Shown in pieces: positions 3,166-32,143 of a DNA stretch of 53,756 nucleotides. The notes under the pieces are model-generated. The model had not been told where the DNA came from and did not search any database. It saw nothing but the letters and a program-made list of their open reading frames with translations. The position numbers and the translations under genes are program-made. The first letter of the stretch is position 1, and every line of letters starts with the position of its first letter. Source of the DNA: an uncultured Erysipelotrichaceae bacterium. GTDB lineage: Bacteria; Bacillota_I; Bacilli_A; RF39; UBA660. The stretch covers positions 1 through 53,756 of the forward strand of contig CACZQD010000066.1 of the NCBI GenBank assembly GCA_902783215.1, read 5' to 3'.

Positions 3166-3231
3166 ACTTTTTTATTAAGAATTGTTTCAAAAAAAGCAAA
3201 AATATGGTAATATTTATAATAGGTGAGACAT

Positions 3232-4746
3232 ATGAAATGTGAAAAATGTGGTAATGATATTGCTGAAGGACAAGTTGTGTGTTTGATATGTGGTGCAGAA
3301 GTGCCTAAAAAAAAGAAAAAACCAGAAGAAAAAACAGATGAAAATGGTAAGAATGAAACAACTAGTGATCAAAAACCTAAACGTGTACATGTGAAAAAAG
3401 ATCATACTAGTTTAATTATTGTACTATGCTTTTTTTTGACAATAATTCTTGTCGCAATTTTAAGTTGTTTATTTTATTATAAAGTATTTGTTACTCCTAA
3501 GACAATTTTTATGAATTCGATAGATACTTTATATGATGAAGCAACATTGCCTATTTCAGAACTTCGTAAAAATGGAAAATATAATATTAAATATTCAACT
3601 AATAAATCTGTAAATAGTAATGATGAAATTATGAATTTGTTAAGCAAAGTAGCTTTTTTTACTGATATGACAATGGATTATACAAACAGTGAATTTGCTG
3701 GTGATGTATCTTTCCAATATGATAACAACAGTGTATTTAGTAGTAATATTTATGGCAAAAAGAAAAATGTATATGTTTTAGATAATAAAATAAGTAATTA
3801 TGTTAAAATGAAGAATAAATATAGTGATTATTTTAGTTCAGATAGTAAAAATATTAGTGCGTACATAACAGTTATTAAAGAATTAAAGAATGCTTTACGA
3901 GTAGCGCTTAAAGAGAGCTATTTTAAATCTTATCAGGAACTAACAACCGTTAATGGTATAGATATGGAAGTTACGAAAAATGAGATAATTATTAATAATG
4001 ATAACATAAAAACCATTGAACATGATTTAGTTAAATATTTATCTAAATCAAAGAAATATATATCTTCTATGGCTAAATTGCAATCAAAAAAGGAACAAAA
4101 AGTAAAGAAAAAATTGGATAAAACACTGGAAGGATTAAAACAGAAAAAAACAACAGTTAAAATAGATACAATGACTTTTGATATATATACTAAAGGATTT
4201 AAAAATGGTTTTGTTAAGTTTTCTTTAAAACAAGGATCAGATTTAAAAGAAGTTCTTGTGTTTACTAAAAATGAACAATCTGAATATATTATCAAATTAA
4301 ACATTAACAACAAATATTTAGATGTCAATGTTAAAAAGACACAACTTCCAGAAAAAACAAGTTATCTTATTAATTTAACAAATGGTTTAGATAGTACGCA
4401 AATAAGTATAGAATACTCTTTTAGACATGATAAAAAAGAGATTGATTCAAATATTGATAATACAATTGATTATGAGACAGTTGATAAATCTTTTAAAGAT
4501 AAGTTAGTACAAGATTTAATTAATCAAAATGGAAAAGATAGTTTTAATAGTGATAAACAAAAAGTTATTAATTGGTTTAAGGAAACTATTGAATTATTTA
4601 ATCCTACTGTTAATGTTGTTTATGATGAAGAGGAAAGTAATGTTGAACAGACAAATAATAATGATTCTGATTCAGAAAACAATTATACTAATCCTTCTAA
4701 TCAAGGATCAATTAATGGATTAGGTGATGAAACTATTAATCAATAA
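3232..4746 (+). CDS. Zinc-ribbon membrane protein of unknown function
   Basis: N-terminal CxxC...CxxC (MKCEKCG...CLICG), a Lys-rich linker, one TM helix (IIVLCFFLTIILVAILSCLFYY), then a large extracytoplasmic domain. RBS AGGTGA sits before the ATG at 3232. Confidence 0.6.
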   Translation: MKCEKCGNDIAEGQVVCLICGAEVPKKKKKPEEKTDENGKNETTSDQKPKRVHVKKDHTSLIIVLCFFLTIILVAILSCLFYYKVFVTPKTIFMNSIDTLYDEATLPISELRKNGKYNIKYSTNKSVNSNDEIMNLLSKVAFFTDMTMDYTNSEFAGDVSFQYDNNSVFSSNIYGKKKNVYVLDNKISNYVKMKNKYSDYFSSDSKNISAYITVIKELKNALRVALKESYFKSYQELTTVNGIDMEVTKNEIIINNDNIKTIEHDLVKYLSKSKKYISSMAKLQSKKEQKVKKKLDKTLEGLKQKKTTVKIDTMTFDIYTKGFKNGFVKFSLKQGSDLKEVLVFTKNEQSEYIIKLNINNKYLDVNVKKTQLPEKTSYLINLTNGLDSTQISIEYSFRHDKKEIDSNIDNTIDYETVDKSFKDKLVQDLINQNGKDSFNSDKQKVINWFKETIELFNPTVNVVYDEEESNVEQTNNNDSDSENNYTNPSNQGSINGLGDETINQ

Positions 4747-4748
4747 AG

Positions 4749-4777
4749 AACTTCAAAGAAAACTTGAAGTTTTTTAT
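4749..4777 (+). terminator. Rho-independent terminator after the zinc-ribbon gene
   Basis: 8-bp stem aacttcaa/ttgaagtt, 7-nt loop, then a T-run. Confidence 0.7.
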
Positions 4778-4828
4778 TGTGCATTAGCATTTGATCAGAC
4801 CGTTATTTGTGAAAAATAGCAAATTTTG

Positions 4829-4857
4829 TTGTGTAATAACGAATATTTTGTTATAAT
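4829..4857 (+). promoter_or_regulatory. Putative sigma-A promoter of the phosphonate cluster
   Basis: TTGTGT, 17 nt, TATAAT, with an extended -10 TG (tgtTATAAT). It lies about 55 nt upstream of the GTG start at 4910. Confidence 0.45.
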
Positions 4858-4909
4858 GTATATAGGTGATATATAATTACACAATAGTTGTGTCTTAAGG
4901 GGGCCATTT

Positions 4910-6049
4910 GTGAAGTATTTGTTATTAAGGTTTTTTAAATTTATATTAAAAATAGTTTATTTCTTTTTTAAATTGTTACCAACTAATACAAAAAAAGTTG
5001 TTTTTATTAGCAGACAACAAAATGTTCCAAGTTTAGATTTTAAACTATTAAGTAGAGATATTAAATCAATTGATAGTAGTTATCAAGTGGTCTTTTTGTG
5101 TAAGAAAATGAAAACAAATAAACAATATTTAATAAAATATTGTTTCCATTTAATAAGACAAATGTATCATTTAGCAACATCTAAAGTTTGCGTAGTTGAT
5201 TCATATTGTATTTGTGTTAGTGTTTTAAAACATAAAAAAAGCTTAACTATTATTCAAATATGGCATGCTATAGCTACAGTAAAGAAATTTGGTTATCAAA
5301 CTTTAAGCAAAAAATATGGTCGAAATCAAAAGACAGCTAAGATATTAAATATGCACAACAATTATGACTTTGTGATTTCAGGATCAACTAGTATGATACC
5401 GGTGTTTGCTGAAACATTTAATGTATCTTCAGAATGCGTAAAACCTATTGGTACACCAAGAATTGATTATCTAATAAATAATAATCGTCAAATAATGAAA
5501 AAGGTTAAAACAAAATATCCTGAGTTAAATAAAAAGAAGGTTATTTTATATGCGCCAACTTTTCGTAAAAAAGAAAATTTAAGCTTTGATAAAATAATTG
5601 ATACTGTTGATTTTGATAAATATAATTTAATTATCAAGTCACATCCAGTAAAGAAAGAAAAAGTATATGATTCCAGGGTATATAAATGTCATGAATTTTC
5701 TACTATGGAATTACTAACCATAGCAGATTATGTTATAACTGATTATTCAGCAATTAGTATTGAGGCAGCTATTTTGAATAAGCCTGTATTTTTCTATATT
5801 TATGATTATGAAAAATATATAAAAAGCAATGGATTAAACATTGATTTAAAAAGAGAAATGAAAGGTTGCTGCTATAAAAAGTTTAACTCATTGTACCAAA
5901 AGATTAATGTTGGAAAATATGATTATGAACAATTAAAAAAATTTAAAGACAAATATGTATCTCACCAACAAGGTAATAGTGGCTTAATATTAGCTAATTA
6001 TATTGTTAATGGTAAATGGACAGTTGGAAAGGAAGATGAAAATGAGTAA
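4910..6049 (+). CDS. TagB/TagF-family CDP-glycerol glycerophosphotransferase-like enzyme
   Basis: Family-typical motifs IQIWHAIATVKKFGYQ and YAPTFR. GTG start preceded by RBS AAGGGGG. The 3' end overlaps the next gene. Confidence 0.8.
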   Translation: MKYLLLRFFKFILKIVYFFFKLLPTNTKKVVFISRQQNVPSLDFKLLSRDIKSIDSSYQVVFLCKKMKTNKQYLIKYCFHLIRQMYHLATSKVCVVDSYCICVSVLKHKKSLTIIQIWHAIATVKKFGYQTLSKKYGRNQKTAKILNMHNNYDFVISGSTSMIPVFAETFNVSSECVKPIGTPRIDYLINNNRQIMKKVKTKYPELNKKKVILYAPTFRKKENLSFDKIIDTVDFDKYNLIIKSHPVKKEKVYDSRVYKCHEFSTMELLTIADYVITDYSAISIEAAILNKPVFFYIYDYEKYIKSNGLNIDLKREMKGCCYKKFNSLYQKINVGKYDYEQLKKFKDKYVSHQQGNSGLILANYIVNGKWTVGKEDENE

Positions 6050-7349
6050 AAAAGTATATATTGCAATGTCTGCAGATGTTATTCATCAAGGACATATTAA
6101 TGTTATTGAAGAAGGAGCAAAATATGGAGATGTAATTATTGGATTGTTAACTGATGAGGCAATTGCTACATATAAAAGAGTTCCTTTATTAGACTATGAA
6201 AGTCGTAAACAAGTTTTTAAAAATATAAAGAATGTAGTAGATGTAGTTAAACAAAGCACATTAGAATATACAGAAAATTTAGAAGCAATCAAACCAGATT
6301 ATGTAGTACATGGAGATGATTGGCAAAAAGGCATTCAAAGTGTTGTAAGACAAAAAGTAATTGATAAATTAAAAGAGTGGGGAGGACAATTAATAGAAGT
6401 TCCATATACTAAAGATGTATCAAGTACAGATTTAGAAAAACAATATCGTATGTTAACGAATACACCTGATCATCGCCGTAGTAAATTAAAAAGACTTTTG
6501 CACTTAAAACCATATATAAGTGTAATGGAAGCATCCAATGGTCTCACAGGTTTAATTGTTGAAAATGCCAGTGTCGAAGACGATAAAAAAGGTATAAAAA
6601 AAGAATTTGATGCTATGTGGGTAAGTAGCTTATGTGATTCCACGTTCAAAGGTAAACCAGATATTGAATTAGTTGATTTAACTAGTAGAATTAACACTAT
6701 TAATGAGATTATGGAAGTTACAACAAAACCAATTATTTTAGATGGTGATACCGGAGGAAAAATTGAACATTTTATATATAATGTTAAAACATTAGAACGT
6801 TTAGGGGTATCAGCTATTATTATCGAAGATAAAACGGGATTAAAGAAGAATTCTTTATTTGGTACTGATGTTAAACAAACACTTGATGATCCAGATAATT
6901 TTGCTGCAAAAATTAGAGCAGGTAAACAAGCACTAGCTACAAGAGATTTTTTAATTTTTGCTCGTTTAGAAAGTTTAATTGCTGGTATGGGAATTGATGA
7001 TGCTCTTGCAAGAGCAAAAAAATATATTGAAGCTGGCGCAGATGGAATTATGATTCATAGTAAAGAAAAAAGTGGTAAAGAAATTAAAGATTTTTTAAAA
7101 AAATTCCGCAAAAAATATACTGATATTCCAGTAATAGTTGTTCCAACTGCATATAATGAATTTACAGAAGAAGAATTAAATAAATGGGGTGCAAATATAA
7201 TCATTCATGCAAATCATTTGCTTAGAAGCGCATATCCTGCTATGATGAAAACAGCTAAATCCATTTTAAAAAATGGACGTAGTAAAGAAGCAGATAAATA
7301 CTGTATGTCAATAAAAGAAATATTAACGCTTATTCCTGGAGGAAAATAA
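6042..7349 (+). CDS. ppm: Bifunctional TagD-like (HxGH) cytidylyltransferase / phosphoenolpyruvate mutase
   Basis: The N-terminal ~130 aa carry HQGH, GDDW and VSST motifs, as in glycerol-3-phosphate cytidylyltransferase. The C-terminal ICL/PEP-mutase fold carries the PEP-mutase-diagnostic EDK-x5-NS motif (EDKTGLKKNS). The ATG at 6042 overlaps the upstream stop. Confidence 0.9.
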   Translation: MSKKVYIAMSADVIHQGHINVIEEGAKYGDVIIGLLTDEAIATYKRVPLLDYESRKQVFKNIKNVVDVVKQSTLEYTENLEAIKPDYVVHGDDWQKGIQSVVRQKVIDKLKEWGGQLIEVPYTKDVSSTDLEKQYRMLTNTPDHRRSKLKRLLHLKPYISVMEASNGLTGLIVENASVEDDKKGIKKEFDAMWVSSLCDSTFKGKPDIELVDLTSRINTINEIMEVTTKPIILDGDTGGKIEHFIYNVKTLERLGVSAIIIEDKTGLKKNSLFGTDVKQTLDDPDNFAAKIRAGKQALATRDFLIFARLESLIAGMGIDDALARAKKYIEAGADGIMIHSKEKSGKEIKDFLKKFRKKYTDIPVIVVPTAYNEFTEEELNKWGANIIIHANHLLRSAYPAMMKTAKSILKNGRSKEADKYCMSIKEILTLIPGGK

Positions 7350-7350
7350 T

Positions 7351-8460
7351 ATGATAAATACAAAAAAATTTTATGATTATTTAATCAAAAAAGAGTTGGA
7401 TTTTTTTACAGGAGTACCAGATTCGTTGCTTAAAAATTTATGCTCTTGTATTAAAGAAAATACTGATTCAAAACATAATATTATTGCAGCTAATGAGGGA
7501 AATGCAATTGGTTTAGCTTCAGGATATCATATTTCATCTGGTAAATTTGGTGTTGTTTATATGCAAAATTCTGGAATTGGTAATACAGTTAATCCATTAC
7601 TTTCTTTAGCAGATGAAGAAGTATATAGTATTCCTATGTTACTTATTGTTGGATGGCGAGGAGAACCTGGTATTAAAGATGAACCTCAGCACGTAAAGCA
7701 AGGCAAAGTAACTATTGATTTATTTAAGACAATGGGGATTGAATGTTTAGTTTTAGATGATAATTACGAAAAACAACTAGATTATTGCTATAGCTATATG
7801 AAAGAGAATAATAAACCAATTGTTTTAGTAGTTCATAAAGGAACATTTAGTGAATATGATAGTTCTAAAACTAGTAATTCTTATGATTTAACACGTGAAG
7901 AATCATTAGAAGTAATTATGAACAGTATAAATAAAGATGATTTTATTGTGTCAACTACTGGAAAAACTTCAAGAGAAATATTTGAACTTCGTGAAAAAAG
8001 AAAAGAAGGACATTCTAATGACTTTTTAACAGTAGGTTCGATGGGACATACTTCTTCAATTGCATGTGGCATGAGTATAGGAAGTAAGAAGAATATCTAT
8101 TGTATAGATGGTGATGGATCATTCATAATGCATATGGGTTCATTTGCTATAATTCCACAAGTTGCAGATAAAAACTTTAAATATATATTAATTAATAATG
8201 GAGCTCATGAATCGGTTGGAGGACAACCTACAGTTGGATTCAACATTGATGTTGAGAAGATATTAAAAGGTTGTGGTTTTAAAAATGTTTATAAAGCTAC
8301 TACTAAAGAAGAAATAAAAAGAGGTGTTGAAAAGATAAAAGAAGATTCATTACAAGCTTTAGTTATCTATACCAAATTAGGATCACGCAAGGATTTAGGT
8401 CGTCCAACAGTGTCTCCTATTGATAATAAAAAAGCTATGATGAAAAAATTTGGAAATTAG
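7351..8460 (+). CDS. ppd: Phosphonopyruvate decarboxylase (ThDP-dependent)
   Basis: Motifs GVPDSLLK, VYMQNSGIGN, GWRGEPGIKDEPQH and IDGDGSFIMH. The start is 1 nt after the ppm stop. Confidence 0.9.
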   Translation: MINTKKFYDYLIKKELDFFTGVPDSLLKNLCSCIKENTDSKHNIIAANEGNAIGLASGYHISSGKFGVVYMQNSGIGNTVNPLLSLADEEVYSIPMLLIVGWRGEPGIKDEPQHVKQGKVTIDLFKTMGIECLVLDDNYEKQLDYCYSYMKENNKPIVLVVHKGTFSEYDSSKTSNSYDLTREESLEVIMNSINKDDFIVSTTGKTSREIFELREKRKEGHSNDFLTVGSMGHTSSIACGMSIGSKKNIYCIDGDGSFIMHMGSFAIIPQVADKNFKYILINNGAHESVGGQPTVGFNIDVEKILKGCGFKNVYKATTKEEIKRGVEKIKEDSLQALVIYTKLGSRKDLGRPTVSPIDNKKAMMKKFGN

Positions 8461-8469
8461 GTGATTAAA

Positions 8470-9234
8470 ATGAAAGCAATAATATTTAATTCAGGTCTTG
8501 GCAAGAGAATGGGTGAATTTACTAAAACTAATCATAAAAGCATGGTTAAACTATATAATGGAGAAACTATTTTAGAACGTCAAATTAGGATATTAGGCTC
8601 AAATGGAATTAAAGATTTTATTATTACAACAGGACCTTTTAAAAAAAAAAAAAAAAAAACTTGTTCTAAATTTACTGATTGTAATTTTGAATTTGTAAAC
8701 AATTCAATTTATGATAAAACTAATTATATATATTCTATGTTTTTGGCTCAGCACTTATTTAATGATGATAGTTTACTTCTTCATGGAGACTTAGTATTTG
8801 ATGAAGGATTAATTAAAGAAATAATAAATGATGATAACAAATCATTATGTTTAATAAATGAAGAAAAACAATTACCTCAAAAAGACTTTAAGGGAAGAGT
8901 ACAGAATGGTAGATTAAAAGAAGTATCTATCAATATCTTTGATGAGGATTGCTATTGTTTTCAACCACTTTATAAATTATCAAGACAAGATTTAGATAAA
9001 TGGGTTGATAAAGTAAATGAATTTGTAAAAGAAGGTAACACAGGAGTATATGCTGAAAATGCTTTAAATACTATTTTAGATGATATGAATATACGCGCTA
9101 AATCATATGTTAATCATTATATTGATGAAATAGATAATTTAGAAGATTATGAAAGAGTATCACAAGATATTGAAAAATTTGATCAGGGAGTAAGGAGTAA
9201 GGAAGATGCAAAAGTTTATCGAAAAAATATCTGA
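8470..9234 (+). CDS. LicC/PntC-like nucleotidyltransferase (phospho- or phosphono-headgroup cytidylyltransferase)
   Basis: N-terminal MKAIIFNSGLGKRMG NTP-transferase loop. The overall layout resembles S. pneumoniae LicC. The gene contains the A19 tract, which encodes KKKKKK. Confidence 0.75.
   Translation: MKAIIFNSGLGKRMGEFTKTNHKSMVKLYNGETILERQIRILGSNGIKDFIITTGPFKKKKKKTCSKFTDCNFEFVNNSIYDKTNYIYSMFLAQHLFNDDSLLLHGDLVFDEGLIKEIINDDNKSLCLINEEKQLPQKDFKGRVQNGRLKEVSINIFDEDCYCFQPLYKLSRQDLDKWVDKVNEFVKEGNTGVYAENALNTILDDMNIRAKSYVNHYIDEIDNLEDYERVSQDIEKFDQGVRSKEDAKVYRKNI
8641..8659 (+). repeat. Homopolymeric A19 tract inside the LicC-like CDS
   Basis: I counted 19 consecutive A by eye. The next-longest A/T runs I noticed in coding sequence are about 8-9 nt. 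Confidence 0.95.
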
Positions 9235-10294
9235 TTTAAATAAAACTATTAATTTATCACAATACAACAATATTTTAGTTGTATGTGATAAATTTTTATT
9301 AGAATCACCAGTTATAAAATTGTTACAAAGCAGTAATATAAATATTCATTTTTTTACAGATTTTCAAGCCAATCCTAAGTATGAAGAAGTAGTTAAGGGA
9401 ATTAATTTATTCAACAGTAAACAATGTGAATTAATAATAGCTATTGGTGGAGGAAGTTCTATTGATGTAGCTAAATGTATTAAAGCATTTGCTAAATTAG
9501 ATAGTAAAAAAAATTATTTAGAACAAGAAATAATTGATGATAAAACTAATTTAATAGCTATACCAACAACAGCAGGAACTGGTAGTGAATCTACACATTT
9601 TGCCGTTGTTTATTACAACAATAAAAAGTACTCAGTAGCAAGTAATTACATTCTACCTAACTATGTAGTTTTAGATTCACAATTTTTAGTAAGTTTACCA
9701 CTATATCAAAAAAAATCAACCATGCTAGATGCCTTATGTCAAGGTATAGAATCATATTGGAGTGTTAATTCAACTGATGAAAGCAAAAAATATGCAAAAG
9801 AAGCAATTAAACTAGTATTAAAAAACTATGAACAATATATTAAGCAGAATGAATCGGTATATAATGATATCTTAAAAGCAGCAAATTATAGTGGTAGAGC
9901 TATAAATATAAGTAAAACAACCGCACCACATGCTATGAGTTATAAAATAACATCATTGTATGGTATCAGTCATGGACATTCAGTTGCACTTTGTTTGCCA
10001 TTTGTCTGGGAATATATGATACATAATATGAATTTAACTATAGATAAGAGAGGAAAAGAATATCTTAATCAAATATTTAACGATTTAGATAAATTATTTG
10101 AATGCCAAACACATGAACAATCAGTCAATAAATTTAAACAAATATTAAATAAAATTGATATCAATTGTAGTAATATAGTAAAAGAAGATGATTTAAATAT
10201 ATTAACATCTTCTGTAAATGTAGAACGTTTGAGTAATAATCCAGTAAGTTTAAATAAAGAAGAAACCAAGAAAATATATATGAAACTAATGTAA
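9206..10294 (+). CDS. Group III iron-containing alcohol dehydrogenase (candidate phosphonoacetaldehyde reductase)
   Basis: GGGSSIDVAKC motif and His-rich metal-site region (APHAMSY, SHGHSVA). Strong RBS GGAGTAAGGAAG. It overlaps the upstream gene by 29 nt. Confidence 0.75.
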   Translation: MQKFIEKISDLNKTINLSQYNNILVVCDKFLLESPVIKLLQSSNINIHFFTDFQANPKYEEVVKGINLFNSKQCELIIAIGGGSSIDVAKCIKAFAKLDSKKNYLEQEIIDDKTNLIAIPTTAGTGSESTHFAVVYYNNKKYSVASNYILPNYVVLDSQFLVSLPLYQKKSTMLDALCQGIESYWSVNSTDESKKYAKEAIKLVLKNYEQYIKQNESVYNDILKAANYSGRAINISKTTAPHAMSYKITSLYGISHGHSVALCLPFVWEYMIHNMNLTIDKRGKEYLNQIFNDLDKLFECQTHEQSVNKFKQILNKIDINCSNIVKEDDLNILTSSVNVERLSNNPVSLNKEETKKIYMKLM

Positions 10295-10303
10295 TTTTAT
10301 AGG

Positions 10304-13009
10304 GTGGTGTATGTTGTGAAAAAGAAAGTAAAAGTATCTATAATTGTACCAGTATACAATGTAGAAAAATATATAGAACGTTGTTTAATCTCTTTGATTA
10401 ATCAAACATTGGATAGCTATGAAATCATAGTTGTTAATGATGAAAGCCCTGATAATAGTCAACAAATTATAGATACATATGTTAAAAAGTATCCAAATAA
10501 AATAAAATCATATATAAAAAATAATGGTGGGCCCGGGGACGCTAGGAATTATGGTGTTAAGAAAGCTACTGGTGAATATATTGGTTTTGTTGATAGTGAT
10601 GATTGTATTAATGAAAATATGTTTGAATTAATGTACGAAAAAGGCAAAAAAGAAAACTCTGATGTTGTAGTATGTGACTATGCAACCTTTGATGAGGGAT
10701 CAATTCAAAACAAGAATATTTTTAATAATTTAGACAAGTTTCCAAATAACGTTGAAAATGAACCAACTATACTTTTTGATTGTAAACCATATATATGGAA
10801 TAAAATCTATAAAAGAAAGTGGTATGTCAAAAATAACTTTTCTTTTCCAATAAATCAATGGTTTGAAGATGATGCTGTAATCTATAATATTTTATATAGT
10901 GCAAATAAAATATCATCATTAGATGAAGTTTTATATTATTACTATAATACAAATAATTCTTCGATTACAAATACTATAAGCATGAAAATTTTTGATATTT
11001 TTAAAGCTACACAGAGTATTTTTGATTTTTATCAATCACACACAACTAAAAAAGAAGTTTTAGATGTAGCAGAGAGATTATGTCAAATACATATTTTTGT
11101 TCGTCTTAATTTTCTGATAAAAAAATCGACAGATAAGAAGTTAATGATAAAGTTTTATAAAAAAGCAAATAAGTTTTTTAATCAACATTTTCCAAAGTGG
11201 TCCAAGAATCCTTATTATAAACAAGTTTCCAAGAAAAATATATATTTAAGAATTAGACATATTCCTTGGTTAATGTATATCTATTTCTTAACACCAAAAA
11301 AGTTTAAATCATTTGTAAAATTGATTACTAAAAAGAAATCAAGACAAAGAAAAAGAAGTAAGAATTATATAAGTAAGGATAGACTTAGACAACTTCAGTT
11401 AATAGAATTAGATATATTAAAGGAAATAGATAAAGTTTGTAAAGATAATAATATTACATATTATTTGGGTGAAGGAACATTATTAGGCGCAATCAGACAT
11501 AAAGGATTTATACCATGGGATGATGATTTAGATATAGTTATGCCCAGAAAAGATTATATAAAGTTTTTAGAAATAGCAGATAAAAAATTATCATCAAAAT
11601 ATGAATTACTGAATGAACATAAAGATGATAATTATTATTTACCTTTTTCTAAAGTTATATCTTTAGATAAACACGGATTTATTAATAATTTAGATAAATT
11701 TTCAAATAATTACTCTGGACCATATGTTGATATTTTTCCACTGGATTATGTGGATACTATAAATAAAAAGAAAGTGGAAAGAAAATATCGAAAAATTAGA
11801 AAAATTAGGGATATGTTATTATTTAAAGTTGACTATTTTAAACCAAATACTAAAAAGAGAATTTTATATAAAATAGAATCTAACTATTATTCCAACAAAA
11901 AATTATATGATAAATTAAATAAAATAATTATTAATACAGATAGTTCAAATAAATATATGTGTAATTTTGCAAGTTCTTATCATCCAAAGAAACAACTCGT
12001 TCCAAAAGAAGTTTATGGTAAACCAAAATATATTCAATTTGAAGATACTTTGTTTCCTGTTCCTAATGATTCAGACAAATTGTTAACTATAATATATGGA
12101 GATTATATGAAACTTCCTCCAATCCAGCAACGCAAATCAAAGCATGGATTTTATGATGAAGTATCTGCATATAATATTGTGGAAACTAAGAAACAAGAAG
12201 ACGAAGAAATGGATATGTTATTAGAACAAGAAATGAGTCAATTGCACAATATAGAATTAAGTATTTTAAAAGAAATAGATAAGATATGTAAAAAACATAA
12301 AATAAATTATTATTTAGGAGAAGGTTCAATGTTAGGAGCAATAAGACATCATGGATTTATACCTTGGGATGATGATATTGATCTTTTAATGAAACGCAAT
12401 GATTATGAAAAATTTTTGAAGATTGCTCCTAAGGAAATCTCTAAAAATTATGAGATACAACATTCTTCTTTAATTGATAATTATTGGTCACCATTTATAA
12501 AAGTTCGCTATTTAAAAAAATGTAATTTTAAGCAAAAACATATTGAACATTTAACAGATCATAATGGTCCATTAATAGATATTTTTCCGTTGGATAATGT
12601 ACCAAAAAAGAATAGTTTGAAACAATTCATGCAAGCATTTACTATTAAACTTAATAGAGGTATGTTATCATATAAATTGAGACTTCGACAACCAAAAAAA
12701 ATAAAAGGATATATTGTTAAATTCTTATCTAATTTTGTTTCTGTGAATAGAATACATAAAACTTTGAATAAAACATTTATCAAGTATAATAATAAAAATA
12801 ACAAATACATTGTTAATTTAGGAAGTTATTATAGTTATAAGAAGCAAACACATCCTAAAAATTGGTATGGAAAGCCTAGAATAGTTTCGTTTGAAAAAAA
12901 TAAATATCCTATACCAAAAGAAGCAGAAAAAATATTATCAAGTGTTTATGGTAATTATATGGAGTTACCTCCAAAAAATAAAAGAATTATTAAACATCAT
13001 TTTGAATAA
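10304..13009 (+). CDS. Tri-domain family-2 glycosyltransferase + two LicD-type phosphotransferase domains
   Basis: GT2 motif VSIIVPVYN...VVNDESPDNS. Two LicD modules (YYLGEGTLLGAIRHKGFIPWDDDLDI and YYLGEGSMLGAIRHHGFIPWDDDIDL). The start is ambiguous among in-frame GTGs at 10304, 10307 and 10316. Confidence 0.8.
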   Translation: MVYVVKKKVKVSIIVPVYNVEKYIERCLISLINQTLDSYEIIVVNDESPDNSQQIIDTYVKKYPNKIKSYIKNNGGPGDARNYGVKKATGEYIGFVDSDDCINENMFELMYEKGKKENSDVVVCDYATFDEGSIQNKNIFNNLDKFPNNVENEPTILFDCKPYIWNKIYKRKWYVKNNFSFPINQWFEDDAVIYNILYSANKISSLDEVLYYYYNTNNSSITNTISMKIFDIFKATQSIFDFYQSHTTKKEVLDVAERLCQIHIFVRLNFLIKKSTDKKLMIKFYKKANKFFNQHFPKWSKNPYYKQVSKKNIYLRIRHIPWLMYIYFLTPKKFKSFVKLITKKKSRQRKRSKNYISKDRLRQLQLIELDILKEIDKVCKDNNITYYLGEGTLLGAIRHKGFIPWDDDLDIVMPRKDYIKFLEIADKKLSSKYELLNEHKDDNYYLPFSKVISLDKHGFINNLDKFSNNYSGPYVDIFPLDYVDTINKKKVERKYRKIRKIRDMLLFKVDYFKPNTKKRILYKIESNYYSNKKLYDKLNKIIINTDSSNKYMCNFASSYHPKKQLVPKEVYGKPKYIQFEDTLFPVPNDSDKLLTIIYGDYMKLPPIQQRKSKHGFYDEVSAYNIVETKKQEDEEMDMLLEQEMSQLHNIELSILKEIDKICKKHKINYYLGEGSMLGAIRHHGFIPWDDDIDLLMKRNDYEKFLKIAPKEISKNYEIQHSSLIDNYWSPFIKVRYLKKCNFKQKHIEHLTDHNGPLIDIFPLDNVPKKNSLKQFMQAFTIKLNRGMLSYKLRLRQPKKIKGYIVKFLSNFVSVNRIHKTLNKTFIKYNNKNNKYIVNLGSYYSYKKQTHPKNWYGKPRIVSFEKNKYPIPKEAEKILSSVYGNYMELPPKNKRIIKHHFE

Positions 13010-13032
13010 GATTTATTCTTATTCTTTTTTTG
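13004..13032 (+). terminator. Rho-independent terminator closing the phosphonate cluster
   Basis: Stem gaataag/cttattc spans the stop codon and is followed by T8. Confidence 0.65.
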
Positions 13033-13078
13033 AAATCAACTTTTTGGGATATTTGCATACATTAAAATGAGGAGTGAT

Positions 13079-13615
13079 ATGATGGCATCATATAAGGAAA
13101 TTGTTACAAAAGCTATTATCGGTAAAGGTAAAAAATATTTTAAAGATAACTATTCTTTAGAAGTTAATAATAAACCATCTACTATATTAGGGTGTTGGGT
13201 AATAAATCATAATTTTAAAGGATATAAAACAGGTGATAAAATAGGTGTGAATGGTAGTTATGATGTTAATATTTGGTATTCATATGATAATGATTCTAAA
13301 ACTATGGTAGCTAATAAAAAAATAGATTATAGTAATGAATTTTCAGTAAGAATAAGAGAAAACGCAGATTTAAATAGTGATACCGATATTATTGTTCGCC
13401 CTTTAAAACAACCAAGTTGTTCAGGAGTAAATATTGATGGAAATAAAATATCTTTTGATATAGAAAAAGAATTAGGAGTTGAAATAGTAGGGGAAACTAA
13501 AATGAAAATAGCTATTGAAGATGATGAAGATCCTTGGGATGAAATTGAAGATGAAGTTGATAAAAAAATAGAAGAAGATATCGATAATAGTGTTAATGAA
13601 GAGTATATTGATTAA
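13079..13615 (+). CDS. cotE: Spore coat morphogenetic protein CotE homolog
   Basis: Colinear with B. subtilis CotE as I recall it (YKEIVTKAIIGKGKKYF..PSTILGCWVINH..YDVNIWYSY..EIVGETK, plus an acidic C-terminal tail). RBS GAGGAG. Confidence 0.75.
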   Translation: MMASYKEIVTKAIIGKGKKYFKDNYSLEVNNKPSTILGCWVINHNFKGYKTGDKIGVNGSYDVNIWYSYDNDSKTMVANKKIDYSNEFSVRIRENADLNSDTDIIVRPLKQPSCSGVNIDGNKISFDIEKELGVEIVGETKMKIAIEDDEDPWDEIEDEVDKKIEEDIDNSVNEEYID

Positions 13616-14224: not shown

Positions 14225-14254
14225 TGACATTTTTATGTCATTTTTATTTTTTTT
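14224..14254 (+). terminator. Rho-independent terminator after the rpsP-KH operon
   Basis: atgacat/atgtcat stem followed by a long T-run. Confidence 0.65.
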
Positions 14255-14334
14255 ATAAAATGAGAAAAAAGTATTTACTTGTCAAAATATATGTGATAAC
14301 ATATTAATGTAATGTAAGATAGGAGGTATAGAAA

Positions 14335-16572
14335 GTGAAAAAATTACATTATTTATTAATAGTATTCGCATTATTTTTAGTATGTGGTATTAATGTAAAA
14401 GCAGCAAGTAAAACAATAAGCAATGGTACATATACAATTTCAAGCGCAATACATAATGGTTATGTACTAGATGTAACAGGCGGAACTATGAAAAATCGTA
14501 CTAATATTCAGCTTTATAATGGGTTAAATAGTAAATCTCAACAATGGAAAGTAACTTATTTGGGAAGTGGATATTATAGTATCGTTAGTGCCAAAAATAC
14601 TTCTTACGCACTCGATTTTGCTGGAACAAAGAAGAAAAATGGTACAAATATTCAACTATGGAAATACAAAAAAACAAACAAATCACAGCATTGGATAATC
14701 AAAGATGCAGGGGATGGATATTATTATATAATAGCTAGAAACACAGGATTATATGCATCAGTAAAAGGAAGACAAGCTGTTAATAAATCTAATATTCATG
14801 CTTGGACTGGTTATAGTGGAAAAGCTCAAAAATTTGTTTTCTCACCGGTTGTGAAGGGAACAAAAACAATTTCAGATGGTACATATGTTATATCATCAAA
14901 ACTATCAAATAGTAAAGTAGTTGAGTTTGAAGGAAATAAGCCTAAAAACTGTGCTAATGTTCAATTGAACCAATTTACAAATGGAATTAACCAACATTGG
15001 TATGTAAGTTATTTAGGAAATGGATATTATAGTATTAAAAATTTATATATTGATGATTATTCGTTAGATGTAGCTGGAATAGGAAAAACAAAAAAGACTA
15101 ATGTTCAGCTATATAAATCAAACGGTTATGATGGTCAACAATTTGTAATTCAAAGTGCAGGAAATGGTTATTATAAAATAATTGCAAAGAATAGTGGACT
15201 AGCTATTGATATTGCTGGAGCAAAATCAGCTAATGGTACAAATATTCAAACTTGGACAAACTTTAATACAAATGGACAATTATTTAAATTTACTAAAGCA
15301 ACATATATTTCAGCACCGGAGGTTGCAATTGATTATGATGATGATAATGGAGATGAACCAACACGATATGTTATTTCTTATAGCTATTTTGGCGAAGAAG
15401 AAGATTATGATGGTGTAGAAATATATGGCTCTTCTGATGGTAATAATTTCTCAAAGATTAATAATAATGGGGAAAAAAGAATATATGCTGATGTAAATGA
15501 TAAAGCTATGTTTTTCAAAGTAAGATTATATAAAAATACTTATAATGGAAAAGCATATAGTGATTTTTCTAATGTGGAAGGAATAAACTTATTAGAGGCA
15601 AAATTATTGACTCATAAAATTGATGAAAATGACGAAAATGTTACCTATAATATTGTAATAGATGTTCCTAGTATTGCTTTTTTTCATGACTTTGTTGAAG
15701 ATAAGGATCCTTTATTAGAAATAGAGAAATTATCTACTGATACTGGGACTTGGGAACACTATGCTACAGAAAATGGTTATCAAAAGACAATGACTATTCC
15801 AAAAAACATGAGTTGGATTGATTCTTTTGATTCATATTATAGAATGAGAATTGTTTATGAGGAAAATGGTGTTCAAAAATATAGTGATTATGTAGAATTT
15901 AGTTTATATAGTATTTTGATTACTGAACCATCATTTGATATGAATGTTGATACACAGAATAATGAAGATGGAACTGCTGATTATACATTTTCAGCACCTA
16001 AAGATTTTGAAAATGTCAATTACATGATATTGTATGAATTGGATGAAAATAATGACATTATAAATACAGTTTATGAAGGCAAAGAATTAAGTTACACATT
16101 GCATGTTGAAGATGATATGAATAAACGTTATCAAATGTATCTATATAATAGAGAAGATGGAGAAGATGGAGAAGATAGCTATTCTATAGAACTATTAAAA
16201 GTTTCAAGTATTTATGAAGTAGATTACCGTTATCCTACAGTAAAAATGTTTAATTTTATAGTTGATAATGACGAAGAAATGGGACAATATTATTCTTTTA
16301 ATATAAAAGGATTAAGCAATATGCCTTTGGAAGTAACTCATGCTGAACTATTTGCATTAAATGTAAATGATGAATCTGAGTATTCATTGGATACTTTTAT
16401 GAATCTAAATGATCTTAATGATTTTGTAGATATTGATTCACCAATACATCGTTATGTAAATGAATATACATTTGAAAATACTAAAATATATAAGCTAGCT
16501 TTAAAACTTTATGATAATAATAATGAAGTTATTGATACTATATATAGTAATGAATTAGATTATAATGAATAA
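14335..16572 (+). CDS. Secreted protein with two ricin-B (beta-trefoil) lectin domains and about four C-terminal beta-sandwich-like modules
   Basis: Signal peptide (LIVFALFLVCGINVKA). Two sets of (QxW)3-type repeats (SQQWKV, SQHWII, AQKFVF; NQHWYV, GQQFVI, GQLFKF). The repeated C-terminal modules end in YSD-like motifs. No LPXTG. Confidence 0.75.
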   Translation: MKKLHYLLIVFALFLVCGINVKAASKTISNGTYTISSAIHNGYVLDVTGGTMKNRTNIQLYNGLNSKSQQWKVTYLGSGYYSIVSAKNTSYALDFAGTKKKNGTNIQLWKYKKTNKSQHWIIKDAGDGYYYIIARNTGLYASVKGRQAVNKSNIHAWTGYSGKAQKFVFSPVVKGTKTISDGTYVISSKLSNSKVVEFEGNKPKNCANVQLNQFTNGINQHWYVSYLGNGYYSIKNLYIDDYSLDVAGIGKTKKTNVQLYKSNGYDGQQFVIQSAGNGYYKIIAKNSGLAIDIAGAKSANGTNIQTWTNFNTNGQLFKFTKATYISAPEVAIDYDDDNGDEPTRYVISYSYFGEEEDYDGVEIYGSSDGNNFSKINNNGEKRIYADVNDKAMFFKVRLYKNTYNGKAYSDFSNVEGINLLEAKLLTHKIDENDENVTYNIVIDVPSIAFFHDFVEDKDPLLEIEKLSTDTGTWEHYATENGYQKTMTIPKNMSWIDSFDSYYRMRIVYEENGVQKYSDYVEFSLYSILITEPSFDMNVDTQNNEDGTADYTFSAPKDFENVNYMILYELDENNDIINTVYEGKELSYTLHVEDDMNKRYQMYLYNREDGEDGEDSYSIELLKVSSIYEVDYRYPTVKMFNFIVDNDEEMGQYYSFNIKGLSNMPLEVTHAELFALNVNDESEYSLDTFMNLNDLNDFVDIDSPIHRYVNEYTFENTKIYKLALKLYDNNNEVIDTIYSNELDYNE

Positions 16573-16581
16573 TTAATTAAA

Positions 16582-16616
16582 AATTGAACTTTTATAATAT
16601 GAGTTCAATTTTTTTC
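16582..16616 (+). terminator. Rho-independent terminator after the lectin gene
   Basis: 9-bp stem aattgaact/agttcaatt plus T6. Confidence 0.7.
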
Positions 16617-24806: not shown

Positions 24807-25625
24807 ATGAATGTTATTAATGAATATACAGATAAAATATTTGAAGAAATAAAACATATAGATGAAGAGGGCAATGAATATTGGTTATCAAGAGAATTAC
24901 AACAAGTTTTGGAATATACACAGTGGAGAAGATTTGCAAGTGTAATTGAAAAGGCAAAAAAAGCTTGTGATAATTCAAAAATAAATATTAATGATCATTT
25001 TGCCTATGTTGGCAAAACGATAAAAATGCCAAAGGGTGCAACAAAAAAAGTTGCAGATTTTAAATTGTCAAGATATGCATGTTATCTGATTGTTCAAAAT
25101 GCAGATCCGAGAAAAAAGTTTATTGCTTTGGGTCAAACTTATTTTGCTATTCAAACAAGAAAACAAGAATTGATTGACACGGAATATAGTAAAATGACAG
25201 AAGAAGAAAAAAGATTTTATCAACGAGATTTAACTAAAAAAGGAAATTATTCTTTAAATATTACTGCTAAGAATGCAGGAGTTAAGAATTTTGATAAATT
25301 TCATAATGCGGGATATAAGGGATTATATAATGGAGAAACTGCCAATGATATTGCACAAAGAAAGAATTTAAGATATAGAGAAGATATATTGGATAATATG
25401 TGTAGTGAAGAATTAATTGCAAATTTGTTTAGAATCTCTTTAACTGAACAAAAATTGAAAAATGAGAAAGTTAAACTAGGTAAAGAAGCTAATCAAGCAC
25501 ATTATGAAGTGGGGCAAGATATTAGAAAAACTATAAAAAAACAAGGTGGGACATTACCAGAAGAATTTCCCACACCAACTAAAAGTTTAAAGGAGTTGGA
25601 ACACAATATAAATAAATTTGATTAA
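24807..25625 (+). CDS. dinD: DNA-damage-inducible protein D
   Basis: Colinear with E. coli DinD as I recall it (LSRYACYLIVQNADPRK, GQTYFAIQTRKQEL, ELIANLFR, GGTLPEEFPTP). Confidence 0.85.
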   Translation: MNVINEYTDKIFEEIKHIDEEGNEYWLSRELQQVLEYTQWRRFASVIEKAKKACDNSKININDHFAYVGKTIKMPKGATKKVADFKLSRYACYLIVQNADPRKKFIALGQTYFAIQTRKQELIDTEYSKMTEEEKRFYQRDLTKKGNYSLNITAKNAGVKNFDKFHNAGYKGLYNGETANDIAQRKNLRYREDILDNMCSEELIANLFRISLTEQKLKNEKVKLGKEANQAHYEVGQDIRKTIKKQGGTLPEEFPTPTKSLKELEHNINKFD

Positions 25626-25668
25626 ATAGATTAAACGTGATAAAATGATTGAGACATTGGAGGAGTTT

Positions 25669-26397
25669 ATGGATTTAAAAGGGAAAGTAGCTTTAGTTAC
25701 TGGTTCTAGTCGTGGAATAGGAAAATCTATTATATTAGAATTAGCTAAAAGAGGATGTAACGTTATAATTAATTATATTCAAAACAAAGAATTAGCTTTA
25801 AATGTGAAGAAAGAAGTTAATAAATATAATGTTGAATCATTAGTTATTAAAGCTGATATTTCAAATGAAGAAGAAGTTAAAGATATGGTATCTCAAATTA
25901 TGATTGAATTTGGGCATATTGATATTTTAGTTAATAATGCTAGTATTGCTTTAGATAATTATTTAGAAGATAAAAGTGTGGAAGAATTTAAGAAAGTGAT
26001 TGATGTAAATTTAGTTGGGTCTTTTATTGTTAGTAAATTAGTGTCAGAGAAAATGACTGAAGGAACTATTATTAATATAGCATCTAATAATGGAATAGAC
26101 CAACAAACTACTTATAGCATTGATTATGATGCATCAAAAGCAGGTATTATTTCTTTAACTCATTCATTTGCTAGATCTTGTCCACATTTAAGAGTTAATG
26201 CTATCGCACCTGGTTGGATTAATACCGAACCAGTGTTAAGTATGAATCCTGATACTATAAATGAAGAAAAGAATAAGATTATTATGAATAGGTTTGGTCA
26301 GCCAGAGGAAGTAGCTAAATTAGTATGTTTTTTAGCAAGTGATGATGCTAGTTATATTAATGATAGTATTATTCGTATTGATGGAGGAATTAAGTAA
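25669..26397 (+). CDS. Short-chain dehydrogenase/reductase (FabG-like)
   Basis: TGSSRGIGKS cofactor loop, NNAS motif and catalytic YDASK. I chose the ATG at 25669 after RBS GGAGGA. Confidence 0.8.
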   Translation: MDLKGKVALVTGSSRGIGKSIILELAKRGCNVIINYIQNKELALNVKKEVNKYNVESLVIKADISNEEEVKDMVSQIMIEFGHIDILVNNASIALDNYLEDKSVEEFKKVIDVNLVGSFIVSKLVSEKMTEGTIINIASNNGIDQQTTYSIDYDASKAGIISLTHSFARSCPHLRVNAIAPGWINTEPVLSMNPDTINEEKNKIIMNRFGQPEEVAKLVCFLASDDASYINDSIIRIDGGIK

Positions 26398-27617
26398 TGG
26401 ATATAGAAAAATTAGTTGAAGAAAGTGAAAAAGAATTACAAAGTGAATTTAACTATTTAGATAAATTATGTTTTGATAATAGTTTAAAAGTTTTAGATGC
26501 TTTTAGAAAGTATAAAGTATCAACTACTCATTTTGAAGGCACTACGGGATATGGGTATAATGATTTAGGAAGAGATACAATTGAAAAAGTCTTTGCTTAT
26601 ATTTTAGATGGAGAAGATAGTTTAGTAAGAACACAATTAATATCGGGTACACACGCTATATCTACAGCTTTATTTGGTTGTTTAAGACCTAATGATTTAT
26701 TATTATCAGTTAGTGGAACTCCATATGATACTTTGCATGAAGTTATTGGTATTAAAGATAATGCTAGCTCATTAATTTCTTTTGGAATTAAGTATGATGA
26801 AATAGAATTAGTGGACAATGATTTTGATTATGATAAAATAAAAACATATATTGAAAATAATCAAGTAAAAGTATTATATGTTCAAAGATCTAAAGGTTAT
26901 TCAAATCGTAAGAGTATTAGTATTGATAAAATAAGTAATTTAGTTAAATTAGTTAAAAATATTGATAAAGATATTATTATTATGATTGATAATTGTTATT
27001 GCGAATTTGTAAGTTTAAAAACACCTTTAACAGTTGGTGCGGATATTATTATAGGTTCATTAATTAAAAACTTAGGTGGTGGTATTGCACCTAATGGAGG
27101 ATATATTGCTGGAAGAAAAGATTTAATTCATTTATGTAGTGAAAGACTTAATGTTGCTGGTGAAGCTAAGGAGGTTGGACCTAGTTTAGGTTTAAATAAA
27201 CAACTATTACAAGGATTATATAATGCTCCTAGTGTGGTTAATGCATCTTTAAAAACAGCTGTATTAACTAGTTTAGTTTTAGAAAAATTAGGATATGATG
27301 TTGAACCTAAATATAATGAAGATAGAGTAGACATTGTTCAAAGTATCATATTCAATAATAGTGAGAAACTAATTAAGTATTGTCAAGGAATACAAGCAGC
27401 ATCTGCAATTGATTCTTTTGCCTTGCCAATGCCTGATCCAATGCCTGGTTATGATGATAAAATTATTATGGCTAGTGGTTCATTTATTCAAGGGTCATCA
27501 ATTGAAATATCTTGTGATGGTCCAATTAGAAAACCATACATTGCTTATCAACAAGGATCTTTAACTTATGAATATGGTAAAATAGCATTGATAAGTGCTT
27601 TAAAAAATATTAAATAA
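26397..27617 (+). CDS. PLP-dependent Cys/Met-metabolism family protein (YnbB / 'aluminium resistance' family)
   Basis: GTTGYGYNDLGRDT...ISGTHAISTALFG matches the YnbB family. The start overlaps the SDR stop (TAATG). Confidence 0.8.
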   Translation: MDIEKLVEESEKELQSEFNYLDKLCFDNSLKVLDAFRKYKVSTTHFEGTTGYGYNDLGRDTIEKVFAYILDGEDSLVRTQLISGTHAISTALFGCLRPNDLLLSVSGTPYDTLHEVIGIKDNASSLISFGIKYDEIELVDNDFDYDKIKTYIENNQVKVLYVQRSKGYSNRKSISIDKISNLVKLVKNIDKDIIIMIDNCYCEFVSLKTPLTVGADIIIGSLIKNLGGGIAPNGGYIAGRKDLIHLCSERLNVAGEAKEVGPSLGLNKQLLQGLYNAPSVVNASLKTAVLTSLVLEKLGYDVEPKYNEDRVDIVQSIIFNNSEKLIKYCQGIQAASAIDSFALPMPDPMPGYDDKIIMASGSFIQGSSIEISCDGPIRKPYIAYQQGSLTYEYGKIALISALKNIK

Positions 27618-27620
27618 AAC

Positions 27621-27649
27621 TTGCATATATTTAAAATATATGGTATTAT
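27621..27649 (+). promoter_or_regulatory. Sigma-A promoter of rplS
   Basis: TTGCAT, 17 nt, TATTAT, with an extended -10 TG. The ~60-nt leader contains a gtgatc/gatcat hairpin. Confidence 0.55.
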
Positions 27650-27713
27650 TATTAACGTGATCCGCTGGGTTTATTATTTATGATCATAAATTATAGAAAG
27701 GAATGTGACAACA

Positions 27714-28082
27714 ATGAATTTAGTAGAAAAGATTACTAAAAAACAAATTAGAACTGATATTCCTGAGTTTCGTGTTGGTGATACTGTAAAAGTTAATCTT
27801 AAGATTGACGAAAAAGATTCTCGTGGAAATATCAAAACAAGAATTAAAGTTTATGAAGGACTTGTAATGGCTATTCAAGGTTCTGGAGTGAGTAAAACAT
27901 TTATCGTTAGAAAAGTTTCAGGTAATGTAGGAACTGAAAAAACTTTACCAGTTAATTCACCTCGTATTGATTCAATCGAAGTTGTAAGAAAAGGTAAAGT
28001 AAGACGTGCTAAATTAAATTATATTAGAAATGCAAAGAAAGCTCCTAAGATCAAAGAAAGAGCCGATAAGAAGGGAAAATAA
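27714..28082 (+). CDS. rplS: 50S ribosomal protein L19
   Basis: MNLVEKITKKQIRTDIPEFRVGDTVKV...VRKGKVRRAKLNYIR is canonical L19. Confidence 0.95.
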   Translation: MNLVEKITKKQIRTDIPEFRVGDTVKVNLKIDEKDSRGNIKTRIKVYEGLVMAIQGSGVSKTFIVRKVSGNVGTEKTLPVNSPRIDSIEVVRKGKVRRAKLNYIRNAKKAPKIKERADKKGK

Positions 28083-28083
28083 A

Positions 28084-28109
28084 AATAAGGCTATTTGTAG
28101 CCTTATTTT
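28084..28109 (+). terminator. Rho-independent terminator after rplS
   Basis: 10-bp stem aataaggcta/tagccttatt plus Ts. Confidence 0.7.
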
Positions 28110-28123
28110 GTTAGGTGATAAAT

Positions 28124-28648: not shown

Positions 28649-28654
28649 TTTTAT

Positions 28655-30399: not shown

Positions 30400-30446
30400 G
30401 ACATATAAAAAAAATTAATGTATTATATTAGCTCGTGGTGATGGTA

Positions 30447-32130: not shown

Positions 32131-32143
32131 AGGAGGAATTTAA

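Follow-up and report, generated by a model that had tools for sequence, protein, structure and literature searches.

A strain-variable six-gene island of an uncultured gut Firmicute is a predicted 2-hydroxyethylphosphonate tailoring cassette

Analysis of contig CACZQD010000066.1 (assembly GCA_902783215.1), which comes from an uncultured, spore-forming gut Firmicute, revealed a six-gene island that is probably a self-contained phosphonyl tailoring cassette of the 2-hydroxyethylphosphonate (HEP) branch: HEP would be made, activated with cytidine triphosphate (CTP) and attached to a cell-surface glycopolymer. The window is the whole contig (53,756 bp, approximately 25% G+C). Among named MiaB homologs, the closest (75-76% identity) belong to metagenome-assembled genomes labelled 'Bacilli bacterium' and 'Firmicutes bacterium'. 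Family memberships, motifs, gene order, conserved neighbourhoods, domain fusions and an empty site in a second strain were computed directly. The first-pass annotation of this DNA had proposed a cluster for carbon-phosphorus (C-P) chemistry that lacks a transaminase and leads, through HEP activated with cytidine monophosphate (CMP-HEP), to LicD- and TagF-like transferases acting on a surface polymer. That core proposal is supported by the genes found beside relatives of the cassette's alcohol dehydrogenase (ADH), by a match to Fom1, and by natural proteins in which a nucleotidyltransferase, the ADH and LicD are fused. A fused cytidylyltransferase (CyTase), a 19-nt poly(A) tract and the island nature of the locus are points beyond it. 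The features on which the argument depends are as follows.

4759-13025, + strand: strain-variable island holding the whole cassette, 8267 bp, delimited by comparison with contig L089
4910-6049, + strand: g1, single-domain TagF/TarB-like CDP-alditol phosphotransferase, 379 aa; PF04464 (Glyphos_transf), 212 bits
6042-7349, + strand (maximal open reading frame [ORF] from TTG 6003): g2, Fom1-type CyTase (about 6075-6434) fused to a phosphoenolpyruvate (PEP) mutase, Ppm (about 6486-7340); Pfam PF01467 and PF13714
6825-6854, + strand: EDKTGLKKNS (EDK-x5-NS), residues 262-271 of the 435-aa g2, found by motif search
7351-8460, + strand: g3, phosphonopyruvate decarboxylase (Ppd); TIGR03297, 444.5 bits against a cut-off of 312.5
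8470-9234, + strand (maximal ORF from GTG 8461): g4, PntC/LicC-like nucleotidyltransferase of the 'HGD' subfamily (NT3); PF12804
8641-8659, + strand: poly(A) tract of 19 nt within g4, with the reading frame intact in this assembly
9206-10294, + strand: g5, candidate PhpC-type phosphonoacetaldehyde reductase (Fe/Zn-ADH); PF00465 (128 bits) and PF25137 (ADH_Fe_C)
10304-13009, + strand: g6, three-domain transferase with GT2 (about 10337-10777), LicD-a (about 11438-12100) and LicD-b (about 12257-12985) domains; PF00535 (Glycos_transf_2), 124 bits, and PF04991, 292 bits in two stretches

The six co-directional genes described in the first-pass annotation are all present in the ORF list, tightly packed (4910-13009) between a 507-aa gene and cotE (13067-13615), which lies 3' of the cassette. 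The g1/g2 junction is -8 nt with g2 starting at ATG 6042 (-47 nt with the maximal ORF), and those that follow are +1 nt (g2/g3), 0 or +9 nt (g3/g4), -29 nt (g4/g5) and +9 nt (g5/g6); this arrangement of overlapping or nearly abutting genes fits a single operon. Just one other ORF of at least 80 aa occurs in the island, and it is antisense and encodes 83 aa. Profile searches of Pfam and NCBIfam, which had been suggested as a check, placed all six products in families, among them PEP_mutase, Glyphos_transf, LicD, NTP_transf_3 and Fe-ADH.

The first two steps of the predicted pathway belong to g2 and g3. For g2, ATG 6042 is the likely start since it yields a protein of 435 aa, as in homologs. This protein exceeds the cut-off of TIGR02320 (390.9 bits; cut-off 319.55), and the next model, phosphonopyruvate hydrolase, is not reached (141 bits against 374). 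It also carries the EDK-x5-NS motif, which separates Ppm from the rest of the isocitrate-lyase superfamily (PMC6697681). In g3, TPP_enzyme_N and TPP_enzyme_C domains are accompanied by a GDG thiamine-diphosphate motif at residue 254, and its TIGR03297 score agrees with the earlier description of a textbook Ppd, just as the g2 profile and motif agree with that of a PEP mutase. The Ppm domain would convert PEP to phosphonopyruvate, which Ppd would decarboxylate to phosphonoacetaldehyde, pulling the Ppm equilibrium. The N-terminal domain of g2 (PF01467, 50.9 bits, with the HxGH motif as HQGH at residue 15) matched the Fom1 CyTase (PDB 5x3d) at 168.7 bits (E 1.9e-48) over 131 residues, and TagD, a glycerol-3-phosphate cytidylyltransferase, at only 32.5 bits (about 1e-7). 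The Fom1 CyTase forms CMP-HEP in fosfomycin biosynthesis (PMC6697681, citing Cho 2017).

Reduction of phosphonoacetaldehyde to HEP would then fall to g5, an assignment that is well supported by inference. Homologs at 47-56% identity carry the NCBI name phosphonoacetaldehyde reductase. The metal site is complete: D175, Q179, H242 and H256 of g5 align with the zinc ligands D192, Q196, H261 and H275 of PDB entry 6jko, and Q179, H242 and H256 are invariant among 25 family members. At the position of Gln179, P. fungorum PhpC has a His (PMC13576164). Entries 6jko and 6jkp were deposited as 'methanol dehydrogenase'; we infer that they represent the sulfoacetaldehyde reductase whose zinc ligands are listed in PMC13576164. 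Four residues beyond the third metal ligand, Tyr is strictly conserved in PhpC, and sulfoacetaldehyde reductases have Phe (PMC13576164). The corresponding residue of g5, Y246 (H242+4), is invariant in the family and aligns with Phe265 of 6jko; its equation with Tyr264 of PhpC (H260+4) was made by position, not by direct alignment. The earlier proposal that an Fe-ADH of the PhpC/FomC type yields HEP is therefore backed by (i) the active site, with its metal ligands and Tyr246, (ii) the NCBI-named homologs and (iii) the neighbours of related genes.

The last of these were surveyed in 80 genome loci containing g5 homologs (42-67% identity), drawn from gut Bacilli, Clostridia, Bacteroidales, spirochaetes and others and searched with the window's proteins; 38 of the loci have at least 8 kb on both sides of the ADH gene (full-flank loci). 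Ppd was found near the ADH in 67 of the 80 loci (35 of the 38 full-flank loci), Ppm in 63 (34 of 38) and a Fom1-like CyTase domain in 60 (34 of 38). NT3 was present in 48 (22 of 38), LicD in 34 (20 of 38) and a TagF-like gene in 14 (7 of 38). A class-V aminotransferase gave one strong match (L007) and two weak ones (22-25% identity) among the 80 loci, and none among the 38. This neighbourhood comparison, another of the checks proposed earlier, places the g5 family with ppm and ppd, the biosynthetic type of context, and not with phnX or phnY-phnA, which are catabolic. The commonest gene order was NT3-CyT-Ppm-ADH-Ppd (23 loci); CyT-Ppm-Ppd-ADH without NT3 (14 loci) is typical of Bacteroidales, which have the Ppm-fused CyTase domain as their sole cytidylyltransferase. 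The order seen in the window, CyT-Ppm-Ppd-NT3-ADH, was restricted to five loci: four metagenome-assembled genomes (MAGs) labelled 'uncultured Bacilli' and one labelled 'Clostridia bacterium' (L086). A locus labelled Muribaculaceae (L009, 1-8740) has NT3 and LicD proteins 66% identical to those of the window, far above the other Bacteroidales loci, suggesting that the genes either moved horizontally between gut bacteria or were binned wrongly.

The fourth gene provides a second candidate for activation of the headgroup. Its product passes the cut-off of PF12804 (NTP_transf_3; 32 bits against 27), and its best solved relatives are the Treponema denticola PntC Tde1415 (6pd1, E 1.5e-9) and LicC (1jyk). 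When g4 was compared with Tde-like proteins by hhalign, residues 5-153 aligned with a probability of 99.8, the Tde-like sequences being fragments. In Tde-PntC, Glu104 hydrogen-bonds the amine of 2-aminoethylphosphonate (AEP; PMC6697681); Glu196 is a second residue in contact with AEP. The position of Glu104 is held in g4 by His108 (numbered from GTG 8461): all 54 of the ADH-linked NT3s had this His, in an HGDLVF motif, and all 40 Tde-like sequences had the Glu, in LLLESDL. Because His replaces the AEP-contacting Glu104, we did not class g4 as an AEP-type PntC, and it can be read as the HEP-type counterpart of that enzyme.

Domain fusions among NT3 relatives also point to a common pathway. A phmmer search of 1.84 billion representative proteins returned 3842 relatives, and the best 150 were typed by domain: 87 were stand-alone NT3 proteins and 60 were fused to ADH. 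The fusions to ADH comprised 54 NT3-ADH proteins, five NT3-ADH-LicD proteins (P0337, P0342, P0354, P0411 and P0368, the last of which, at 1228 aa, is NT3-ADH-LicD-LicD) and one NT3-ADH-Glyphos_transf-MptE protein (P0464). Two further proteins were NT3-CyTase and one was NT3-CyTase-Ppm; no fusion to an aminotransferase occurred among these 150. Such proteins tie the reductase, the nucleotidyltransferase and LicD into one pathway, in which HEP would be converted to CMP-HEP by g4, by the Ppm-fused Fom1-like domain, or by both. The gene for the NT3-ADH-Glyphos_transf-MptE-like protein (L090, 167-4312) is followed by a CTP_transf_3 gene.

Several points weigh against the assignment of this island to the HEP branch. 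Every enzymatic activity and the acceptor are inferred, as are the CMP-HEP intermediate and phase variation. For g5, the score against TIGR03405 was 146.3 bits, below the cut-off of 423.7, and about equal scores were obtained on unrelated Fe-ADH models; because the cut-off is not reached, the assignment rests on genomic context and two active-site positions. TIGR03405 represents the proteobacterial PsrA/PhpC branch of phosphonate-associated Fe-ADHs, and PhpC enzymes are reportedly very divergent, at 27-39% identity (PMC13576164). Likeness to Fom1 alone cannot prove HEP specificity either, since 23.6% of Ppm proteins are PF01467-Ppm fusions (PMC6697681), a larger share than that of the HEP branch, which accounts for 8.5% of neighbourhoods (PMC8942020). 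The presence of two cytidylyltransferases for one substrate is unexplained. The contig covers 54 kb of genome, which leaves room for an AEP transaminase, tagD or tarIJ outside it, and in one related locus (L001/L007) the ADH occurs together with a class-V aminotransferase (Aminotran_5).

These last two points, together with the reversibility of the PhpC-type ADH reaction (PMC13576164), would fit a cassette that makes AEP by means of a transaminase encoded elsewhere, with the ADH in a side or salvage role. We consider that very improbable, as the 38 full-flank loci contain no aminotransferase near the ADH, ADH-nucleotidyltransferase fusions occur in many lineages, and the Glu in contact with the AEP amine (PMC6697681) is missing from NT3. 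The absence of an aminotransferase from the cluster, remarked on in the first-pass annotation, was borne out and extends to the whole 53.7-kb contig: none was found in the ORF list or by Pfam scans of the other window ORFs, and a tblastn search of all six frames with the class-V aminotransferase of a related locus gave no match (best E 4.5). In L001/L007, the closest genome relative, Aminotran_5, a CTP_transf_like-GFO_IDH_MocA fusion and LicD precede the module (3492-7080), and the CyTase and Ppm parts fall in two distinct ORFs (82 and 299 aa). The locus may carry a frameshift, or it may produce HEP as well as AEP.

That the cassette encodes a small-molecule antibiotic of the fosfomycin or phosphinothricin type is still harder to credit, and we regard it as extremely unlikely. 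Its Fom1-like, Ppd and FomC/PhpC-like genes do correspond to the first three or four steps of fosfomycin biosynthesis in Streptomyces (PMC6697681, PMC8158854), but the cassette has neither a Fom3-type radical SAM methyltransferase nor FomD, an epoxidase, HEPD, a peptide-forming enzyme or a resistance gene, and HEP-consuming enzymes of the HEPD, MpnS or Fom3 type are absent from both the island and the contig. Moreover, half of the coding capacity is given over to glycan and alditol-phosphate transferases.

These transferases are g1 and g6, and they suggest where HEP would go. The WDDD(L/I)D motif is retained in each of the two LicD domains of g6, as WDDDLD at residue 405 and WDDDID at residue 688, and these domains would pass the HEP-phosphonyl group from CMP-HEP to sugar hydroxyls with release of CMP; the GT2 domain probably adds the sugar to be decorated. 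The best solved relative of g1 is TarL (8va1, E 8e-29). Residues H119 and H245 of g1 align with H444 and H584 of TagF (3l7i), the two catalytic histidines of that enzyme. In size and by full-length alignment, g1 resembles the single-domain TarB/TarF type, and it scores under all the NCBIfam equivalog cut-offs (TarB, 139 against 500; TarL, 128 against 1000; TarF, 70 against 550). Its role would be to add an alditol-phosphate (or phosphonate) unit to the polymer that g6 decorates. Because the cassette contains no flippase, priming transferase or exporter, we suggest that its target is a lipid-linked polymer whose synthesis and export depend on core genes.

The acceptor is most likely a surface glycopolymer, with a glycolipid as a minor alternative. 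In the latter case, the LicD domains would add HEP to a membrane lipid glycosylated by GT2, yielding a phosphono-glycolipid. Mf1 of Mycoplasma fermentans adds phosphocholine to a glycolipid, and Mf1, a diacylglycerol cholinephosphotransferase, is the best NCBIfam match of LicD-b (151 bits), consistent with such a product, as is the lack of flippase, exporter and priming transferase in the island. That score falls under the 225-bit cut-off, however; in relatives the module is part of polysaccharide clusters of the Wzx/Wzy or TagG type, and the TagF-like enzyme points to a teichoic-type polymer. A glycolipid product therefore appears unlikely to us. In L018, from a different Bacilli MAG, for example, a TagG-like ABC-2 permease comes after genes for all six functions; NT3 and ADH are fused there (598 aa), and the locus has three LicD domains and a TagF-like gene 40% identical to g1. 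In other related loci the module lies among Wzx, O-antigen-ligase-like and glycosyltransferase genes.

Attachment of HEP to a surface glycopolymer by LicD leaves the donor used by g1 to be considered. It had been suggested that the TagF-like enzyme might itself use CMP-HEP, either capping a chain or polymerising HEP through its free hydroxyl into a teichoic-like chain of phosphonate esters. No tagD, tarI or tarJ gene was found in the island or the 54-kb contig, and in steric terms CMP-HEP resembles a CDP-alcohol. (The only other PF01467 protein of the contig, at 39507-39995, was considered as a tagD candidate and rejected, being CoaD.) A TagF-like gene accompanies the module in the 14 loci noted above, including the similarly built L018, and P0464 joins NT3 and ADH to Glyphos_transf in one natural protein. 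Against this, the single relative of g1 in a metagenome scan (L087, 45% identity) lies next to a tagD-like gene without phosphonate genes, indicating that the g1 subfamily is not phosphonate specific. The TagF-like matches in most phosphonate loci are just 22-28% identical and so define no phosphonate-specific clade; P0464 is a single case on a 5-kb contig, with a YSD motif in its NT3 and a partly matched ADH C-terminal domain; the LicD domains already account for the use of CMP-HEP; and CDP-glycerol genes may lie beyond the contig. We therefore think it unlikely that g1 uses CMP-HEP as donor. Unlikely too is the fuller version, in which g1 would build or cap a 'phosphono-teichoic' chain of phosphonate-ester-linked HEP units switched by the poly(A) tract of g4; a phosphonate-linked chain built by g1 is not supported, and nothing in the window backs it. 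If it were true, such a wall polymer would have C-P bonds in its backbone and be resistant to phosphodiesterases.

Decoration of the glycopolymer with HEP would vary between strains that have the island and strains that lack it, and probably also through slippage at the poly(A) tract in g4. The tract is the sole homopolymer of at least 10 nt in the window, where 0.0012 would be expected by chance, and no run of A or T of at least 11 nt was found in 1.4 Mb of related loci. Where homologs read KEQLIEV the window encodes KKKKKKT, with length unchanged. A slip of one base in either direction truncates g4 at 65-76 aa and would probably also uncouple the overlapping g5. Phase-variable expression of a lic locus is known from licA of Haemophilus influenzae. 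We propose the 19-A tract, of which a single length was observed, as a candidate slipped-strand ON/OFF (contingency) switch for phosphonate decoration. The near-identical contig L088 begins downstream of the tract.

The island was delimited against a conspecific contig (L089), whose two flanks are 98.6-98.9% identical to those of the island and enclose 55 bp in place of window positions 4759-13025; homology resumes at 13026. Foreign base composition was considered as a mark of the island and rejected, its G+C content (0.23-0.29) matching that of the flanks, and no integrase or transposase gene is present within it. The second assembly, L088, is 98.5% identical over NT3-ADH and has an extra Acyl_transf_3 gene between ADH and GT2 (L088 1512-2510), with a GT2 only 71% identical; given this additional gene and the divergent GT2, we conclude that the cassette is mosaic. 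The 507-aa gene directly upstream (3223-4746) lies outside the cassette, as it is kept in the strain without the island; its product has an N-terminal zinc ribbon, matches no other family and is predicted to contain a single membrane segment. Four candidate signals flank or precede the genes.

4747-4779, + strand: AT-rich hairpin with T-run (RNA fold -11.1 kcal/mol, z -3.64)
4848-4877, + strand: promoter-like TTGTTA-18-TATAAT (promoter scan; count at chance level)
ahead of GTG 4910, + strand: GGGGG ribosome-binding site at the g1 start
13003-13031, + strand: AT-rich hairpin and T7 after the g6 stop, at the right island border (RNA fold -8.2 kcal/mol, z -2.71)

Bracketing of the genes by a promoter and terminators, as the first-pass annotation had described, found weak support. 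Hairpins with T-runs fold on both sides (z -3.6 and -2.7), but promoter-like sites are no more frequent than chance in this AT-rich DNA (74 in the window against 70.4 in shuffles), and a consensus terminator scan made no calls, no terminator satisfying its G+C criterion. The left hairpin is a candidate terminator of the 507-aa gene and forms the left island border; a related hairpin is kept at the empty site of L089. Rfam and tRNA scans of the island found no regulatory RNA.

Two other regions of the window drew attention. A second strain-variable insertion (14254-16607) is absent from the otherwise 97-99% identical L089; the product of its gene (14335-16572; 745 aa) contains several ricin-B lectin domains, and a hairpin terminator of its own is present. 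Further along, a Bro-N protein, a WYL/HTH regulator, two NUDIX proteins, a metallophosphoesterase, an ankyrin-AAA/nSTAND-like NTPase and several ORFs without a Pfam match are encoded at positions 24807-37971, a stretch that could represent the remains of a prophage or a defence island.

Genomes commonly encode phosphonate decorations of bacterial surfaces, but the biochemistry of these is almost untouched. To our knowledge, only the activation of AEP by PntC has been demonstrated, and no transferase step. With six genes and no other functions, the cassette would lend itself well, as a minimal system, to reconstitution of the HEP branch all the way from PEP to decorated glycan, and the natural NT3-ADH-LicD fusions would be ideal for one-protein assays. 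The replacement of Glu by His may set HEP against AEP specificity in PntC-like enzymes. Together, island presence or absence and the 19-A tract suggest a variable surface antigen, relevant to evasion of phage and of host immunity in gut Firmicutes. Nothing known is overturned by the cassette, and a specialist will find in it no great surprise.

Indeed, the novelty claimed in the first-pass annotation was overstated. Neighbourhoods of ppm that belong to the HEP branch had already been inventoried (8.5% of 434), with products known for only two of ten families, in the survey by Li and Horsman (PMC8942020). As the survey defines the branch, the cassette belongs to it, having Ppm, Ppd and a PhpC-like Fe-ADH and no AEP transaminase, RhiG or PhnY. 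The survey, which considered complete genomes only, describes, as far as its text shows, neither uncultured gut Bacilli nor the combination of TagF with GT2-LicD-LicD. The cassette type is therefore already catalogued from genomes, mostly as predictions, and biochemically uncharacterised in such bacteria; what is new here is the strain-variable island, the 19-A tract in the NT3 gene and the His-for-Glu104 substitution in ADH-linked NT3s. A literature search on CMP-HEP, CMP-AEP transferases and follow-ups of PntC found nothing beyond PMC6697681 and PMC8942020.

Among characterised systems, the statement that no HEP-based wall polymer is known overlooked the phosphonoglycans of Stackebrandtia nassauensis and Glycomyces, which contain HEP or dihydroxyethylphosphonate (Yu 2014, as cited in PMC8942020 and PMC13576164). 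There too HEP is carried on a polysaccharide outside the cell, and a PhpC homolog belongs to the clusters, but the producers are actinomycetes with different transferases, and the sources consulted report no LicD, TagF or teichoic link. With the fosfomycin pathway of Streptomyces (Fom1, Fom2, FomC), the cassette shares the PF01467-Ppm fusion, Ppd and a PhpC-class reductase, and lacks Fom3, FomD and Fom4; CMP-HEP is a demonstrated intermediate in that pathway, where it is a transient handle for methylation, whereas here it would be the donor for a transferase. The lic system of Streptococcus pneumoniae (LicC, LicD1, LicD2) likewise combines CTP activation by a PF12804 enzyme with two LicD transfers onto sugars of a teichoic-type polymer; in the cassette, by contrast, the headgroup would be made de novo with a C-P bond, and the two LicD domains are fused to GT2. 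The same logic is seen in the Pnt clusters of oral anaerobes (T. denticola Tde1415 PntC-AEPT, Atopobium rimae and Olsenella uli; PMC6697681), which comprise a Ppm that is often fused to a nucleotidyltransferase, Ppd, a headgroup enzyme, PntC and a LicD-like transferase acting on a surface glycan, and which also hold a second nucleotidyltransferase besides the Ppm-fused one. Their headgroup enzyme is an aminotransferase, giving AEP, and that of the cassette is an Fe/Zn-ADH, predicted to give HEP; correspondingly, the PntC-AEPT fusion of T. denticola is mirrored by NT3-ADH fusions in relatives of the cassette, with Glu104 replaced by an invariant His.

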